Virus record (IMG/VR): IMGVR_UViG_3300037125_000033
Span: 1 to 27,453 of that record
Length of the DNA: 27,453 nucleotides
Direction: 5' to 3' (one strand)
From: a virus
Taxonomy: Duplodnaviria; Caudoviricetes
A program made the position numbers and the translations under genes. The notes beneath the pieces were generated by a model. The model saw nothing but the letters and a program-made list of their open reading frames with translations, was not told where the DNA came from and ran no database searches. Positions 3,593 through 24,685 of this stretch are shown here, piece by piece; the first letter of the stretch is position 1; each line of letters opens with the position of its first letter.

Positions 3593-5049
3593 TACAACAT
3601 CCTTTTTTTGATAAAAAATCCCTTATTCCCCTTGGTATAGGCTTCATAACCTGTCACCAAACTGGCTAATTGATCATCGTGCCCGGATCCCGGAAACTCG
3701 GAAAGTTCCCTTAAAAACTCAGCATTCCAAGGTGCCCGGATTAAATAAACATTGCCCGCCTCAAAAACAGGCTCCAGGGCCGCTGCCCTAATTACAAGAT
3801 CCTTTGAAGGATGTACCTTGCCAATTGTACGATGACCTCTCAAAACATCTTGCAAATACTTATAAGAATCCTTAAAAAGCCCTGTATATTCTGCATAGAC
3901 CTCTACTTCCGGCCCATCTTCTAACGCTGTTTCAAGTATTATGCGATCCCTTTTGGTAGTGCCCCACTGTCCACGCTTAACATCAAGTATAAAAATAGTG
4001 TTTATAAAAAAGCTGTTAAAATGCTCCTCTTGATACACAGCCATTTTTATTCCAACTGTAAAATCAGGGTCATCCTTGACAGTCTCTTTTTCCGACAACG
4101 CCAAGTCCCAGGCCCTTATAACACGCAAACCCTTGGGCAGCTCTTCAAAATACTTCACATTATCGGTCTTGATAAGCTTACCACCTTTGACCGTAGGATT
4201 ACACTGTAAAAGCCCCGCTGCGCTATAGCTCCCCAAACTGGCAAATTGGCCCTCGTACCATTCCTTAGAAAATCGCTCCGGGAACAAATAACCGCTTGAA
4301 TACTCTTCACTTTTAGCGGGCATAACAACAAACTTAAACTTAGGAAAATCCGGAACTTCTTCCATGGCCTTTTTTATTCTGCCGTTAATGTCATCTACAT
4401 GCCACGGTGTATTGCACACAATAGTTATTGATACCGGAGCCCGCCGAGTTAAAAGTGAGTTAGTAAACTCATTCCAAATCTTGTCCCTTATGGTTAAGCT
4501 TTCAGCCTCTTCTCTGTTTTTTGTAGGATCATCCACAATAAGCAGAGAACCTCCGAGCCCTGTTAGCCCCGCTAACATACCAGCGGCGTTATAATCTCCC
4601 GCATGGTCTCGCCCTTCTCTGTCCTTAGGCCTCCACTTTTCAATGCTGGCCCTTGGCTGTAAAATAACATTTGAAAAAATTCGCTTGTAGTTCTCCGATC
4701 TCATTATGTCCTGGGTATGCTTCGAAAAACCACTCGCAAAAGTTGTGTTATATGCCGTCAATATAACATCTTCACTTGGAAACAATCCCCGAAAATAAGC
4801 CGGAAAATATCTCGATACCATATCAGACTTACCATGGCGAAAAGGAATATTAATCACCAAAAAAGATGACTCACCATTTTTGTATCGCTCTATAGCCTCA
4901 TCAAGCTCTGAACATACCCGCCTTGTATGACTGCCTACTATAAGCGGCTTCCTTGGATTCTGCCAGCAATATTTCATGAACTCCAAAAAAGAGCGTTTTG
5001 CTACTTCTGCATTAATCTGCTCAATCGTCGGAAGATTCGCTATCCTCAT
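3592..5049 (-). CDS. terL: Terminase large subunit
   Basis: Walker A PFRHGKS, Walker B LLIVDDP, coupling motif NTPWH, RNase H-like nuclease AWDLA...FPGSGHDDQ. Probable start MRIANL at 5049. Confidence 0.95.
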   Translation of the reverse strand: MRIANLPTIEQINAEVAKRSFLEFMKYCWQNPRKPLIVGSHTRRVCSELDEAIERYKNGESSFLVINIPFRHGKSDMVSRYFPAYFRGLFPSEDVILTAYNTTFASGFSKHTQDIMRSENYKRIFSNVILQPRASIEKWRPKDREGRDHAGDYNAAGMLAGLTGLGGSLLIVDDPTKNREEAESLTIRDKIWNEFTNSLLTRRAPVSITIVCNTPWHVDDINGRIKKAMEEVPDFPKFKFVVMPAKSEEYSSGYLFPERFSKEWYEGQFASLGSYSAAGLLQCNPTVKGGKLIKTDNVKYFEELPKGLRVIRAWDLALSEKETVKDDPDFTVGIKMAVYQEEHFNSFFINTIFILDVKRGQWGTTKRDRIILETALEDGPEVEVYAEYTGLFKDSYKYLQDVLRGHRTIGKVHPSKDLVIRAAALEPVFEAGNVYLIRAPWNAEFLRELSEFPGSGHDDQLASLVTGYEAYTKGNKGFFIKKRML

Positions 5050-6253: not shown

Positions 6254-6319
6254 AAAAAAAGCCCCAGCGATTGGGGCTTCAATAAAATTAAGGATAAAAC
6301 ACGAAAAAAAGAACTTCAT
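6254..6319 (-). ncRNA. Candidate small RNA 2 (~66 nt)
   Basis: Promoter TTGACA-17-TATAGT (6354-6326) and intrinsic terminator AAGCCCCA/TGGGGCTT with U7 tail (6279-6254). Confidence 0.55.
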
Positions 6320-6410
6320 GCTCATACTATAGCAAAAGCCCGGTTATCTGTCAAGTGTTTTTCTTTTATTGAAAAAAGTTGAAAATAATCAATATTTTTT
6401 TAAAAAAGAC

Positions 6411-6439
6411 TTGACTTTTTAGTCAAGATAGATTAATAT
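6411..6439 (+). promoter_or_regulatory. Early promoter with palindromic operator TTGACT-TTTT-AGTCAA
   Basis: TTGACT-17-TAATAT; palindrome 6411-6426; AT-rich UP element. Confidence 0.8.
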
Positions 6440-6470
6440 TAGATTATCAAGAGTTGATAAGGAGATAAAA

Positions 6471-6701
6471 ATGAAAAGAAAGATGGTTTATTTGGTAAGA
6501 GGTTCAGAAGATGGGGCTCTTGGAATTTACACAAACAAAAAGAAAGCTGCTGAAAGGGCTTCAATGTATTTAGAGCATCATAAAAAAGCCCCAAGTTTTA
6601 ATGAGATATATAGGGTATTATGTAAACAAGGCTATGCTTATTTAAATTTAAAGGATAGTTTTGTTAGTGTTGATATTGAGCCATTTATTTTAAACAATTA
6701 A
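6471..6701 (+). CDS. Early hypothetical protein
   Basis: AAGGAG RBS; first gene after the promoter. Confidence 0.75.
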   Translation: MKRKMVYLVRGSEDGALGIYTNKKKAAERASMYLEHHKKAPSFNEIYRVLCKQGYAYLNLKDSFVSVDIEPFILNN

Positions 6702-6707
6702 GAATAA

Positions 6708-6737
6708 AGCCGGAGCAATCCGGCTATCTTAATGCAG
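6708..6737 (+). repeat. Hairpin plus 5' half of twister (partial copy of 7048-7077)
   Basis: AGCCGGA-GCAA-TCCGGCTATCTTAATGCAG versus AGCCGGA-TTGC-TCCGGCTATCTTAATGCAG. Confidence 0.8.
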
Positions 6738-6759
6738 TCAAGGATTTTTAAAAAAAGAC

Positions 6760-6788
6760 TTGACTAAAAAGTCAAGACGTGCTATGTT
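6760..6788 (+). promoter_or_regulatory. Early promoter with operator TTGACT-AAAA-AGTCAA
   Basis: TTGACT-17-TATGTT; palindrome 6760-6775. Confidence 0.8.
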
Positions 6789-6852
6789 TAGAGAGTAAGG
6801 TTGATTAAGACCTTAACAAATAGGCGGCGGCCAATAAACGCAGGAGATTATT

Positions 6853-7041
6853 ATGCAAAAATTAGAAGCCGGACATTATGTAACGAAAACCTCTGAAAAA
6901 AATTACTATGTCACAAAAATGTATTATTGTGGTGGATTTTGTTGGGAATTGAGTGTTTGTGATGAAGAAAAACAATATGAGCCAGAGCATTTTAAAACAA
7001 AAAAAGAAGCTGTCAAAAGAATCGAAGAATTGATAGCATAA
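6853..7041 (+). CDS. Early hypothetical protein
   Basis: AGGAG RBS, 62-aa ORF. Confidence 0.75.
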   Translation: MQKLEAGHYVTKTSEKNYYVTKMYYCGGFCWELSVCDEEKQYEPEHFKTKKEAVKRIEELIA

Positions 7042-7064
7042 TCAAATAGCCGGATTGCTCCGGC

Positions 7065-7118
7065 TATCTTAATGCAGCCATGGCCGGTCACAAGCCCGGG
7101 AAAATGCAGAGTGAGAAA
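7065..7118 (+). ncRNA. Twister ribozyme, type P1
   Basis: UCU-UAA-UGCA-GCC-AUGG-CCG-GUCAC-AAGCC-CGG-GAAAA-UGCA-GA-GUG-AGA. P1 UCU/AGA, cleavage site U^AA, P2 UGCA/UGCA, P4 CCG/CGG, pseudoknots UCAC/GUG and GC/GC. Confidence 0.9.
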
Positions 7119-7154
7119 ATAATAACCGGCGGGTTAAAAACGCAAGGAGATATT

Positions 7155-7643
7155 ATGTCAAATTCAATTATTAATAGCTTAAAAAGACTTGAAAGAGTTG
7201 GTTCTGAAACTTCAGTTGTAACTCAAAAACTGAAGAAATCTTGTGAGGAAATTGCAGATAGAATCTTTGATATTTGTAAAGATTACTCAAATGTTTTCGA
7301 TCCTCATAATGAAGAAATCTCATGGACTAAAATAGCAGGTGATTACAATAAAGAAACAAAGAAGCATTCTAATTCTTTGTGGATAATTGAAACTATGGGG
7401 TCAAAAGACTTGTATTACGAATCCGTGGACAATCTTTCTTGGGAAAATATAATGTATAATTCTGAATTAGCAGAAGCTTATCAAATAAGATATTCTGGAT
7501 GTGTCTCAAGAGAGACTTGTCTTGCTTTTGCAAAACACATATCAAACGGCCTTTTGAATGAGGTTGTTGTATGGGTCGAGAACAAAAAGAAATCAGCTGA
7601 AAAGGCATTAGAGCAGCTGGAAGAAAACAAAGCAGTATTATAA
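7155..7643 (+). CDS. Early hypothetical protein (162 aa)
   Basis: Start MSNSII with AAGGAG RBS; the track's extension to 7080 runs through the ribozyme. Confidence 0.8.
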   Translation: MSNSIINSLKRLERVGSETSVVTQKLKKSCEEIADRIFDICKDYSNVFDPHNEEISWTKIAGDYNKETKKHSNSLWIIETMGSKDLYYESVDNLSWENIMYNSELAEAYQIRYSGCVSRETCLAFAKHISNGLLNEVVVWVENKKKSAEKALEQLEENKAVL

Positions 7644-7685
7644 AATAAAGCCCGGAGTGATCCGGGCCAATAAAAGGAGAAAAAC

Positions 7686-7859
7686 ATGAGAAGCATGAAA
7701 CAAATGGTAAAAGACAGTTTAAGAGATGCTGGCTTTAACATGGAAAACTTTGAAAGCGAATATGAAAAAGCAATTGATAGCTATAATTTTGAGTTTGGCT
7801 GCTATGATGCTGAAAGTCATGATGATTTTTGGAATTATTGTTTTGATAATTGGAGTTAA
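7686..7859 (+). CDS. Small acidic/aromatic early protein (57 aa)
   Basis: AAGGAG RBS; MRSMKQMVKDSLRDAGFNMENFESEYEKAIDSYNFEFGCYDAESHDDFWNYCFDNWS*; below the ORF-track cutoff. Confidence 0.75.
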   Translation: MRSMKQMVKDSLRDAGFNMENFESEYEKAIDSYNFEFGCYDAESHDDFWNYCFDNWS

Positions 7860-8139: not shown

Positions 8140-8161
8140 TTAATATTTTTTACTTTTGCTC

Positions 8162-8190
8162 TTGACTTTTTAGTCAAGCTATGCTAATAT
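8162..8190 (+). promoter_or_regulatory. Promoter with operator TTGACT-TTTT-AGTCAA
   Basis: TTGACT-17-TAATAT with extended TG; palindrome 8162-8177. Confidence 0.8.
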
Positions 8191-12996: not shown

Positions 12997-13507
12997 AAAA
13001 CTATACAACACAATAAACATTTTCCAGGAATGCTTACTTGTATTTTTTATGGTAGGTATTATTTATTTATTTTTTGAGGTGGCATGGGGCACTATAAAAA
13101 ATCCTGATGGCTTCAAAACCTTTAAGAATCTGCTTGCCATGTTTATAGTAGGCGGGAGCCTTGGTGTAATCGCTAACCGTATAACACCACTAATTAAAAA
13201 TCTGCCTGAAAAAGTTCAGTATATTATAACAACATTTATAATTCTGTTTGTTGAATTTTGGGCCGGGATACTTATCAATAAATTATTGGGCTGGGGCAAC
13301 TGGGACTACTCAGAATATCCGCTTAACTTCCTGGGTCAAATCTGCCTGCCCTTTGCATTCCTGTGGTTTTTATTGTCACCACTTTTATTGTGGATATCAC
13401 GAATCTTTAGGCAACAAAGAGAAATTGACACAATAGATTTATTTGATTTCATCGGCATAGATGAGCTTGGCAGTATGTACAGAGATTTATTTCTTAAGTG
13501 GGATTGA
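12989..13507 (+). CDS. CmpB/TMEM229 family (putative ABC transporter type IV permease) membrane protein
   Basis: MFIVGG...EFWAG...WDYSEYPLNFLGQICLPFAFLW signature; four TM segments. Confidence 0.8.
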   Translation: MNKKLYNTINIFQECLLVFFMVGIIYLFFEVAWGTIKNPDGFKTFKNLLAMFIVGGSLGVIANRITPLIKNLPEKVQYIITTFIILFVEFWAGILINKLLGWGNWDYSEYPLNFLGQICLPFAFLWFLLSPLLLWISRIFRQQREIDTIDLFDFIGIDELGSMYRDLFLKWD

Positions 13508-13531
13508 CTAATAAGTCAATTGTATTAATGT
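13504..13531 (+). promoter_or_regulatory. Promoter with operator TTGACT-AATA-AGTCAA
   Basis: Palindrome 13504-13519; TAATGT at 16-bp spacing. Confidence 0.7.
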
Positions 13532-13759: not shown

Positions 13760-15155
13760 ACTAAACCCCTACGACTACCAACAAAAAGACATCGAGTTTT
13801 CATATCACAGCCTGATGTCATACGGCTATGCTGCGCTGCTCATGGAAATGGGAACCGGGAAAACAAAGGTATCACTTAACACCAGTGAGTTGATAATCAG
13901 ATTTGAAAAAGCAAAAGGCCTTATCATAATACCACCTAAATCTTTAATATCAACATGGGAAGATGAGGTTTTAAAGCAAACTTTTTTTGAACCTGATTTT
14001 TCTTACTGGCAAAATGCAAAGCCTTTGACAAGTCCATCCCTAATCACTTTTATTAATGTAGAAACATTCCAGCGGTCAAATAAAATTTTGAAAGAATTTT
14101 TACAGGAGTATTGTCAAGATAGAATTATCATCCTTGATGAATCCACAAAGATTAAAAACCCAAAGGCGCAAAGAACCAAAAATGTGCTTGATTACACACT
14201 AAACGCAAAGTATAAAATGATTTTAACAGGTACGGAAATAACCACATCACTTTTAGATTTATACACTCAATACGAATTTTTAAAAAATGGTTTTTGGGGT
14301 CTGCCCAACTTTTGGCTTTTTAGGTCAAAGTATGCAGAGTTGCAAAGAATAAAGTTGCCTAAAATATATAATCCAAAATTAAAGAAGTTTCAAGAACGAA
14401 CTTTTAACAAGGTAATAGGATTTAAGCGCATAGGGGAATTGACTTCAAAAATATCACACTGCACAGTTAGGCGAAAAAAGAAAGACTGCCTTGATTTGCC
14501 TGAAAAAGTTTTTCAAGATATACACCTTGAAATGACAAAAACACAAGAAAAGATCTATCATGATTTAAAGCGTGATTTAATAGCCGAGTACAAAGACCAG
14601 ATATTGACGGTTCAAGCAAAGGTGTCTTTATTTATTCGTTTCCGTCAAATCACAGGCGGTTTTATGCCGGAGTCCGGGGATTTCTTGGGATCACCAAAAC
14701 TTGCATTTATTAAAGATGATTCAGAAGACTATGAAGGTAAAATAATCATCTGGTCATGCTTTACCGCTGAGATAAATCACTTACATAAAGAATTAAAAAA
14801 TAGTGTAAAGTACGATGGTAAATCCAGCCAAGCAGAAAAAGACAAAGCAATAAACAGTTTTAGAAACAACCCTGATATAAAATATTTTATTGCTAACCCT
14901 CAGAGCGCAGCCTTTGGGCTGAATCTGCAATTTTGTAACTTGGTATATAATTACAGTCGAACCTTAAGTCCTGAACTTGATGTTCAGTCACAAGACCGAT
15001 GCCATAGAATAGGTGTTAAAGGCTCAGTACTATATAAAAACCTTGTGTGCAAAGGTACTATTGATGAGCGAGTGCAAAACATCCTTGACAGTAGACATGA
15101 TATGAGAGAATCTTTCCAGGACTTGAGCATTGGTGATTTTTTTAAATTAATTTGA
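13752..15155 (+). CDS. SNF2-family (SF2) helicase
   Basis: EMGTGKT, ILDEST, LTGT, GLNLQ, QSQDRCHRIG motifs. Confidence 0.95.
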   Translation: MFKLNPYDYQQKDIEFSYHSLMSYGYAALLMEMGTGKTKVSLNTSELIIRFEKAKGLIIIPPKSLISTWEDEVLKQTFFEPDFSYWQNAKPLTSPSLITFINVETFQRSNKILKEFLQEYCQDRIIILDESTKIKNPKAQRTKNVLDYTLNAKYKMILTGTEITTSLLDLYTQYEFLKNGFWGLPNFWLFRSKYAELQRIKLPKIYNPKLKKFQERTFNKVIGFKRIGELTSKISHCTVRRKKKDCLDLPEKVFQDIHLEMTKTQEKIYHDLKRDLIAEYKDQILTVQAKVSLFIRFRQITGGFMPESGDFLGSPKLAFIKDDSEDYEGKIIIWSCFTAEINHLHKELKNSVKYDGKSSQAEKDKAINSFRNNPDIKYFIANPQSAAFGLNLQFCNLVYNYSRTLSPELDVQSQDRCHRIGVKGSVLYKNLVCKGTIDERVQNILDSRHDMRESFQDLSIGDFFKLI

Positions 15156-15184
15156 TTGACTAATTAGTCAAGATGTGATATTTT
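15156..15184 (+). promoter_or_regulatory. Promoter with operator TTGACT-AATT-AGTCAA
   Basis: Perfect palindrome 15156-15171; TG-n-TATTTT at 17-bp spacing. Confidence 0.7.
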
Positions 15185-17228: not shown

Positions 17229-17252
17229 GCCCGGAGCAATCCGGGCTTTTTT
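17229..17252 (+). terminator. Intrinsic terminator
   Basis: GCCCGGA-GCAA-TCCGGGC followed by T6. Confidence 0.85.
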
Positions 17253-21513: not shown

Positions 21514-21690
21514 ATGAAAGAAGTAAGAGTAAAATTGACAAGTGATTTCCCAAATAAATTTTTAGTTTCCTTTCTTGGAAATAACACTTCTTTTTTTGGA
21601 TATAAGTTTCAAGATAGAATAGAGTTAAATTTTAAACACTATAAAATTGTTTTTGAAGAAGAAGATTTTAAATACTTAGAAATAACTTGA
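21514..21690 (+). CDS. Small hypothetical protein (58 aa)
   Basis: GAGGAG RBS; MKEVRVKLTSDFPNKFLVSFLGNN...; its stop codon overlaps the operator. Confidence 0.65.
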   Translation: MKEVRVKLTSDFPNKFLVSFLGNNTSFFGYKFQDRIELNFKHYKIVFEEEDFKYLEIT

Positions 21691-21715
21691 CTTTTTAGTA
21701 AAGATATATTAAGGT
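21687..21715 (+). promoter_or_regulatory. Promoter with operator variant TTGACT-TTTT-AGTAAA
   Basis: One mismatch to the palindrome; TAAGGT at 17-bp spacing. Confidence 0.65.
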
Positions 21716-24483: not shown

Positions 24484-24664
24484 AAAATATGTTTCGATAG
24501 TTTATGATTTACAAGGGAAAAAAGGAGAACATGGCATAGGCAGGATTTTAGCTAAAATAGATATTAAAAAGAAAAGCAACTTTTCATATTTAAAAAAGAT
24601 AGAGAATGAGATAAGAGATATTCTTAATGTTGAAAATATTTTGATAACAAACATACTTGACTAA
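24476..24664 (+). CDS. Hypothetical protein
   Basis: ORF overlapping the polA stop. Confidence 0.6.
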   Translation: MYKKYVSIVYDLQGKKGEHGIGRILAKIDIKKKSNFSYLKKIENEIRDILNVENILITNILD

Positions 24665-24685
24665 AAAGTAAATAAGTATTATACT
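24657..24685 (+). promoter_or_regulatory. Promoter with operator variant TTGACT-AAAA-AGTAAA
   Basis: TTGACT-17-TATACT. Confidence 0.75.

Follow-up and report, generated by a model that had tools for sequence, protein, structure and literature searches.

Hammerhead ribozymes in prophages were proposed in 2011 to cut long transcripts into gene-length mRNAs, and three native polycistronic fragments were cleaved in vitro (PMC3088659). Section 13 of PMC6765202 extends the idea to twisters, with products of different stability, and describes the purpose of phage ribozymes as still undefined. The catalytic A and G positions of the twister class are described in PMC5408937, and ~94% of 1948 natural twisters were active in vitro (PMC11662667); defects in P1, or its length, did not reduce cleavage among the 1948 tested (section 32 of the same source). 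Section 33, which cites Roth et al. 2014, describes an auxiliary stem-loop, P0/L0, present in ~10% of the twisters tested (a mixed library); the mean cleaved fraction was 0.40 where P0 was the sole auxiliary stem versus 0.85 without auxiliary stems.

Here we describe a gene junction in a stretch of viral DNA of 27,453 bases (its own genome record, hereafter the window) in which these elements meet. The layout and the polycistron-splitting idea are already in print, and the window copy is an ordinary type-P1 twister. It shares with the class modelled by RF03160 (PMC5408937, PMC11662667) the order of elements, both pseudoknots, the cleavage-site U-A, the catalytic A and G, and a match over the full length of the model, but it has no P3, a P1 of 3 bp and a score of 56.3 against a gathering score of 67.2. 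Its hairpin, immediately 5' of P1, is of the P0/L0 kind (PMC11662667), although the ~10% of that library compares with 30/36 viral clusters among the matches listed (under a different, energy-based criterion), and the window hairpin and one of the phage's terminators have stems of one family. Like the prophage hammerheads (PMC3088659), the element is intergenic, in sense orientation and proposed to cut a transcript, and a hammerhead occupies this slot in one relative (L176); unlike the prophage hammerheads, which flank single genes, it has another fold, and the 27-kb window holds one intact ribozyme by Rfam. RiboJ insulators (PMC6206723) and glmS (PMC3328962) likewise place a structured 5'-OH end upstream of a ribosome-binding site, but RiboJ is engineered and raises expression in E. 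coli, and glmS is ligand-dependent and lowers expression via RNase J1. A small leader motif at the junction also precedes scaffold genes (8/66 ORF pieces), as do GP20-a (RF02991), GP20-b (RF03003) and six further candidates (PMC10690425); those leaders measure 72-107 nt, whereas the window leader measures ~20 nt and precedes unrelated genes.

A putative early gene junction in a tailed phage

The window encodes a terminase, a family A DNA polymerase, a primase and two helicases and was therefore taken to be a tailed phage contig; its GC content is 35%. One contig of the probable source run (a wetland metagenome) covers 6300-7800 with 0 differences, an agreement that is not independent confirmation; the search of sequencing runs listed this single DNA run and no RNA run. 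No close relative was found: the terminase matched 2 loci (40-42% identity), neither with an Rfam match, GenBank phages gave partial matches only, and the best polymerase matches (35-37% identity) belong to phages of unrelated hosts. The genome collection held a single homologue of the protein downstream of the junction, ~30% identical and on a 4.4-kb contig of a Bacillota MAG that may be mis-binned, which is too weak to serve as a host pointer. The genes and expression signals around the junction are as follows.

6411-6439, + strand: sigma-70-like promoter with an 18-bp palindrome over its -35 box (repeat families D1 and D4), putatively the first early promoter
6471-6701, + strand: 76-aa ORF without family
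6760-6788, + strand: sigma-70-like promoter with TG extension, likely source of the ribozyme-bearing transcript
6853-7041, + strand: upstream 62-aa ORF with a marginal PHROG match (phrog_2287, E 9e-4, unknown function)
7144-7149, + strand: Shine-Dalgarno of the downstream gene
7155-7643, + strand: downstream 162-aa ORF of a small uncharacterised family (20 homologues) with a conserved N-terminus

Both promoters (6411 and 6760) diverge from the packaging genes, which by inference supports the label "early". The 18-bp palindrome over the -35 box is common to seven promoter-like sites (6410-6427, 6759-6776, 8161-8178, 13503-13520, 15155-15172, 21686-21703 and 24656-24673) and is likely an operator for a phage regulator; no regulator gene for it was identified within the window. 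Elsewhere, a 172-aa protein at 12989-13507 matches Pfam ABC_trans_CmpB (E 2e-11) and is a putative membrane protein.

Anatomy of the twister core

The space between the 62-aa and 162-aa ORFs is occupied by a compact RNA element, in the sense orientation claimed for it by an earlier sequence-only reading of this DNA.

7067-7116, + strand: type-P1 twister (Rfam match 7066-7117)
7067-7069/7114-7116, + strand: P1, 3 bp
7070-7072, + strand: cleavage triplet U-A-A
7070-7071, + strand: predicted scissile bond U7070/A7071, placed by the Rfam alignment, with A7071 as predicted general acid and G7109 as predicted general base from the chemistry of the class (PMC5408937)
7073-7076/7105-7108, + strand: P2, 4 bp
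7077-7078/7094-7095, + strand: 2-bp pseudoknot, complementary
7084-7087/7096-7099, + strand: P4, 4 bp
7089-7091/7111-7113, + strand: 3-bp pseudoknot, complementary
7109-7110, + strand: G7109-A7110

Each element lies where that reading had put it when it called a type-P1 twister, and the covariance model agrees: RF03160 matches 7066-7117 across model positions 1-68 of 68 at 56.3 bits (E 1.8e-11, 2 kb searched). When the whole window was scanned (E <= 1) this was the sole ribozyme match, at E 2.5e-10. The score falls ~11 bits short of the RF03160 gathering score of 67.2, which is a curation threshold and not a biological feature; a default Rfam scan, which applies gathering thresholds, therefore returned 0, and the twister was found in E-value mode alone. 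In the Rfam alignment the optional P3 stem is absent and the outer P1 pair is mismatched; P1, P2 and P4 comprise 3, 4 and 4 Watson-Crick pairs, with the RNA ends in P1. A7071, A7072, G7109, A7110 and the L4 loop agree with the Rfam model, and the single loop change is compensated. A structural descriptor of the fold gave 1 match in the window versus 0 in 300 Markov resamples (both strands).

The start codon of the downstream gene at 7155 lies 36 nt after 7118, as the earlier estimate of ~36 nt had it. The same reading saw compensatory changes relative to the rice twister; the letters are indeed present, but they are common variants, the middle pair of the 3-bp pseudoknot being A-U in 20/36 representatives among the matches listed (a count that is inflated because the first scan fixed those letters). 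An AUG within the ribozyme, at 7080, shares the frame of the downstream gene, and that frame stays open from one to the other (7080-7643). It was set aside as a start: the predicted new 5' end is 9 nt away, and a matching N-terminal extension is found in 0/20 homologues.

Covariation and layout among viral twisters

Two pattern scans of viral contigs returned 27 loci and at least 140 loci (about 180 estimated), respectively. Among the matches listed, 177 core matches were reduced to 166 with the P1 layout, 107 distinct sequences, 103 with enough flank and finally 36 flank clusters, the window included; the exact hairpin-twister junction pattern of the window had 0 matches in viral contigs. In the 36-cluster alignment, among the matches listed, 94.6% of cells are paired, and two-sided changes occur at every pair of P1 (4/4) and of P2 (4/4); 0/500 shuffles reach this, and slid controls stand at 18-41%. 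The search pattern fixed P4 and most of the loop, and the covariation accordingly bears on P1 and P2 only; the middle pair of the 3-bp pseudoknot is nonetheless realised by four pair types and is paired in 36/36 clusters among the matches listed.

The flanks of these twisters are equally patterned. Among the matches listed, the 40-nt stretch up to the cut has a folding energy of -10 kcal/mol or lower in 30/36 clusters, versus 8, 5 and 9/36 in three control windows. Only 17/36 of the same listed clusters reach z <= -2 against shuffles, so part of the upstream hairpin signal is GC content. A Shine-Dalgarno with an ORF follows within 80 nt in sense orientation in 26/36 clusters, as opposed to 1/36 antisense and 4/36 further downstream (among the matches listed). 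Also among the matches listed, a sense reading frame ends within 90 nt upstream in 32/36 (a count without control), and a U run stands at the cut in 0/36. From these flank counts, gene-hairpin-twister-ribosome-binding site-gene is the usual layout of viral P1 twisters and is not peculiar to the window copy.

The upstream hairpin and U7067

7046-7067, + strand: P0/L0 hairpin, 8-9 bp, by folding; P0 type as in PMC11662667 section 33

The hairpin that the sequence-only reading placed here folds at -14.2 kcal/mol (z -4.9) and abuts P1. It is not a new element, since it corresponds to the described P0/L0 (PMC11662667 section 33). The further proposal of a hairpin-ended upstream product is supported; P0 would be followed there by a tail of 3-4 nt. 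No intrinsic terminator was called at 7046-7067 on the + strand, where a U run after the stem is absent. The stop codons at 7643 and 17221 are each followed by a hairpin related to P0; that at 17229-17252 is a related stem with six U and looks like a real terminator, and this shared stem family places P0 in a general hairpin family of the phage. The ribozyme would thus supply here the 3' end that termination supplies elsewhere in the phage.

It had also been suggested that the hairpin competes for U7067 of P1 and could tune activity. The competition exists in a pseudoknot-free folding model, where U7067 pairs with A7046 at a probability of 0.45 and with A7116 at 0.46, with equal fold energies; its use for regulation is poorly favoured, one isoenergetic terminal A-U pair being at stake in a stem reported to be dispensable. 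Overlap of hairpin and P1 is absent in 20/36 clusters and present in 16/36, reaching at least 3 nt in 9 of those (among the matches listed). The 3' arm of P0 could in addition pair with 7082-7088 (-10.6 kcal/mol as a duplex), but P0 is more stable and is made first. On this modelling, switching through U7067 is unlikely. A general damping by P0 could still operate by another route, because P0-bearing twisters are cleaved less on average (0.40 versus 0.85).

Contents of the same slot in homologous loci

The downstream protein has 20 homologues, and searching with their alignment located 12, 8 and 1 loci in three collections; once 5 duplicates had been merged and 1 locus that lacked upstream DNA set aside, 15 remained, whose upstream regions were read by eye. 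An intact twister in the slot before the homologous gene was found in 0/15 distinct loci, and several had no recognisable cutting element; cleavage is therefore not required for the downstream gene, and the cutter is exchangeable. The slot holds a hammerhead in 1 of these relatives and a tRNA-like half in 6, the rest having plain hairpins or nothing evident.

The hammerhead, in L176, is of type II (32 bits against a gathering score of 37, E 0.002, fold z -3.4), and a P0-twister lies one gene upstream of its slot. At 1078-1130, L176 contains a variant P1 twister (36.8 bits) whose loop is one base shorter than the consensus, and whose hairpin and P1 5' strand are very like those of the window. 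Twisters occur elsewhere in the locus in 4/16 homologue loci scanned. Operons of related phages are interspersed with type-P5 twisters whose P2 has 3 bp (L170:1379-1455; L182:1984-2035 and 4275-4326; L185:1148-1199, 1615-1666 and 4252-4303), and long GC-rich hairpins occupy the same slot at approximately L181:690-715 and L189:1765-1800.

In the slots of L170, L172-L175 and L179 (5/6 of them close relatives) an acceptor-like stem is stacked on a T-arm-like hairpin. Four were folded: the tRNA-like shape formed in L172, L174 and L179 but not in L170. With ARAGORN, 13 homologue loci yielded no tRNA call. Such halves lie at L170:816-858, L172:2413-2455, L179:2372-2455 and L188:2426-2470, in intergenic slots that ribozymes occupy in relatives, with anticodon arm and CCA absent. 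They are possible processing sites for a host nuclease, and by the substrate rules of RNase P they might be cut by that enzyme.

A truncated copy upstream

6708-6737, + strand: truncated second copy (repeat D12), consisting of a P0-type hairpin and the twister 5' strand as far as the first G of the 2-bp pseudoknot, then the promoter cassette; no catalytic core

This stub, which lacks the core, reads as a recombination scar and ends where the repeated promoter cassette (D1) begins. Its hairpin loop is the reverse complement of the loop in the 7048-7065 hairpin. In two repeat pairs the palindrome centres are reversed between copies (6708-6725 versus 7048-7065, and 6410-6427 versus 6759-6776), each copy being the exact reverse complement of the other, which is what template switching at inverted repeats would produce. 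A similar truncated P0-twister 5' half occurs at L179:2348-2376, fused to the tRNA-like element. The truncated halves suggest cassette shuffling at short homologies, and the ribozyme is a cassette of the intergenic space that can be exchanged, and no fixed component of the downstream gene's leader.

A small leader hairpin before the Shine-Dalgarno

6823-6841, + strand: leader copy 1, a putative mini-pseudoknot directly 5' of the Shine-Dalgarno of the gene at 6853, with a different stem
7123-7143, + strand: leader copy 2 (5-bp stem, 4-nt loop, the loop possibly pairing with 7141-7143), unmatched in Rfam

The leader motif occurs in 9/15 homologue loci but after only 1/107 twisters among the matches listed (the window itself), so that it travels with the genes and not with the ribozyme. 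The same 1/107, among the matches listed, ruled out the mini-pseudoknot as part of a general twister cassette. In an unselected scan a leader stem of at least 3 bp was present in 13/30 pattern matches with a start codon versus 3/85 without (Fisher P 8e-7), and in 26 partly hand-picked sequences 3/4 pairs of stem 1 change on both sides; a flank-shuffle test of the stem fell short of significance (16 observed, against a shuffle mean of 8.8 and a maximum of 19). The motif stands before an ATG-started ORF in 19/62 clusters of one scan and in 53/75 of another, the latter among the matches listed.

For the putative stem 2, the search patterns had fixed two of the three pairs. The third is paired in 7/19 (P 0.12) and in 15/53 (P 0.005; among the matches listed); a loop G faces C or U in 14/14 clusters, and a loop A faces G in 35/51 and U in 5, again among the matches listed. 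A general 3-bp second stem is not supported.

Among the 66/105 downstream ORF pieces that were scanned, 8 hit capsid scaffold families, 1 hit a tail chaperone and 1 showed a weak packaging match, with nothing for 56. The motif is also seen in L171, L176, L177, L179, L183, L186, L188, L189, L310 and many of L311-L529, before unrelated phage genes, and before first genes after promoters. Rfam gave no match to it at E <= 1 in 20 motif-bearing loci, and neither GP20-a nor GP20-b matched in the window or in those 20 loci. The motif was not found in paper searches that included passages of PMC5737381, PMC10690425 and bioRxiv 10.64898/2026.10.21.760802 and 6 supplementary files of PMC10690425; other supplements may list such a leader.

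A model for transcript cutting and its alternatives

The sequence of the junction, the covarying structure of its relatives, its orientation and its spacing lead us to regard 7046-7116 as an intact type-P1 twister with P0 that probably cuts the early transcript once, at U7070/A7071; the 62-aa gene would then be left on a message ending in the hairpin, and the 162-aa gene on a message with a 5'-OH end and its own ribosome-binding site. Transcripts from the putative promoter at 6760, and from that at 6411, would run through the junction; P0 would fold first, and the twister would then cut in vivo at 7070/7071. By the chemistry known for the class, the upstream product would carry a hairpin end, a 3-4 nt tail and a cyclic phosphate, and the downstream product a 5'-OH 84 nt before its AUG, followed by its own Shine-Dalgarno. 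P0, which resembles the 17229-17252 terminator hairpin without its U run, would protect the upstream 3' end, and the two products may have separate lifetimes. The 3-pair P1, a score 11 bits short and the mean of 0.40 cleaved in the P0-only class (PMC11662667) count against this model; the full-length Rfam match counts for it, as does L176, with a type II hammerhead before the homologous downstream gene and a P0-twister one gene upstream.

Which way any stability effect on the downstream mRNA goes would be set by the host. RNase J1 of B. subtilis takes the 5'-OH glmS product as a substrate and destroys it (PMC3328962); in E. coli the ribozyme-made 5' end of an insulator raised mRNA about twofold (PMC6206723). 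Cleavage might accordingly serve mainly to lower the downstream gene, its 5'-OH product being degraded by an RNase J-type 5'-3' exonuclease as for glmS while P0 spares the upstream gene. We think this improbable: beyond the glmS precedent, what points to such a host is the 4.4-kb Bacillota MAG contig with the only genome-collection homologue of the downstream gene, but that homologue is only ~30% identical and may be mis-binned, and the strong Shine-Dalgarno and conserved leader of the downstream gene, like the increase seen in E. coli, argue the other way. The cassette could instead be near-neutral, with recombination shuffling hairpin-ribozyme units among gene junctions, this copy perhaps damped by P0 and its cutting of little effect. 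The truncated copies at 6708-6737 (promoter-fused) and in L179, the differing slot content of the 15 relatives and the lower average cleavage with P0 (PMC11662667) would all fit, yet catalytic and pseudoknot positions are all intact in a genome of 35% GC, and orientation and spacing are strongly non-random in the 36 clusters (among the matches listed); we give this account, too, only a small chance.

Two further readings concern the reach of the ribozyme and its control. A switch in which the hairpin governs cleavage by taking U7067 from P1 seems to us very unlikely, since the two states are isoenergetic and one terminal pair apart, P1 length and defects were irrelevant in the large assay (PMC11662667) and no input signal is apparent; in its favour are the competition in the folding model, some overlap in 16/36 relatives (at least 3 nt in 9; among the matches listed) and the lower mean cleavage with P0 (PMC11662667). 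The intact core might also cut the truncated copy at 6730/6731 as a long-range substrate, one core thereby serving two junctions: the 5' strands of P1 and P2 and the cleavage triplet are all preserved exactly in the stub, whose pseudoknot could form with a single U-G wobble, a change that is tolerated (PMC11662667). This is scarcely credible, however, given that the core has its native 5' strand right beside it, still joined to it once self-cleavage is over, that the stub lies 340 nt off and upstream of the second promoter, and that its junction coincides with the start of the repeated promoter cassette (D1), as that of a recombination scar would.

Implications for phage operons

The purpose of self-cleaving phage ribozymes is unresolved in PMC6765202 section 13, and to that question the window copy adds one more example and no answer. 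What it offers beyond that is modest and comparative. The parts of interest are the slot with its exchangeable contents and the small leader; the leader is widespread, not in Rfam and simple to test by reporter. That the same junction holds a hammerhead or a tRNA-like half in relatives argues that the cut matters more than the cutter. As a tentative generalisation, on balance doubtful, these early operons may be built from two independent RNA parts: a cutter slot with exchangeable contents (twister, hammerhead, or a tRNA half that lacks the anticodon and would serve a host nuclease, RNase P for example) and a mini-pseudoknot of 20 nt, not yet catalogued, that stands before the Shine-Dalgarno of many phage genes and would set translation or shield new 5' ends. 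If this is true, the junction and its relatives would form a natural swap series on what phage ribozymes are for.
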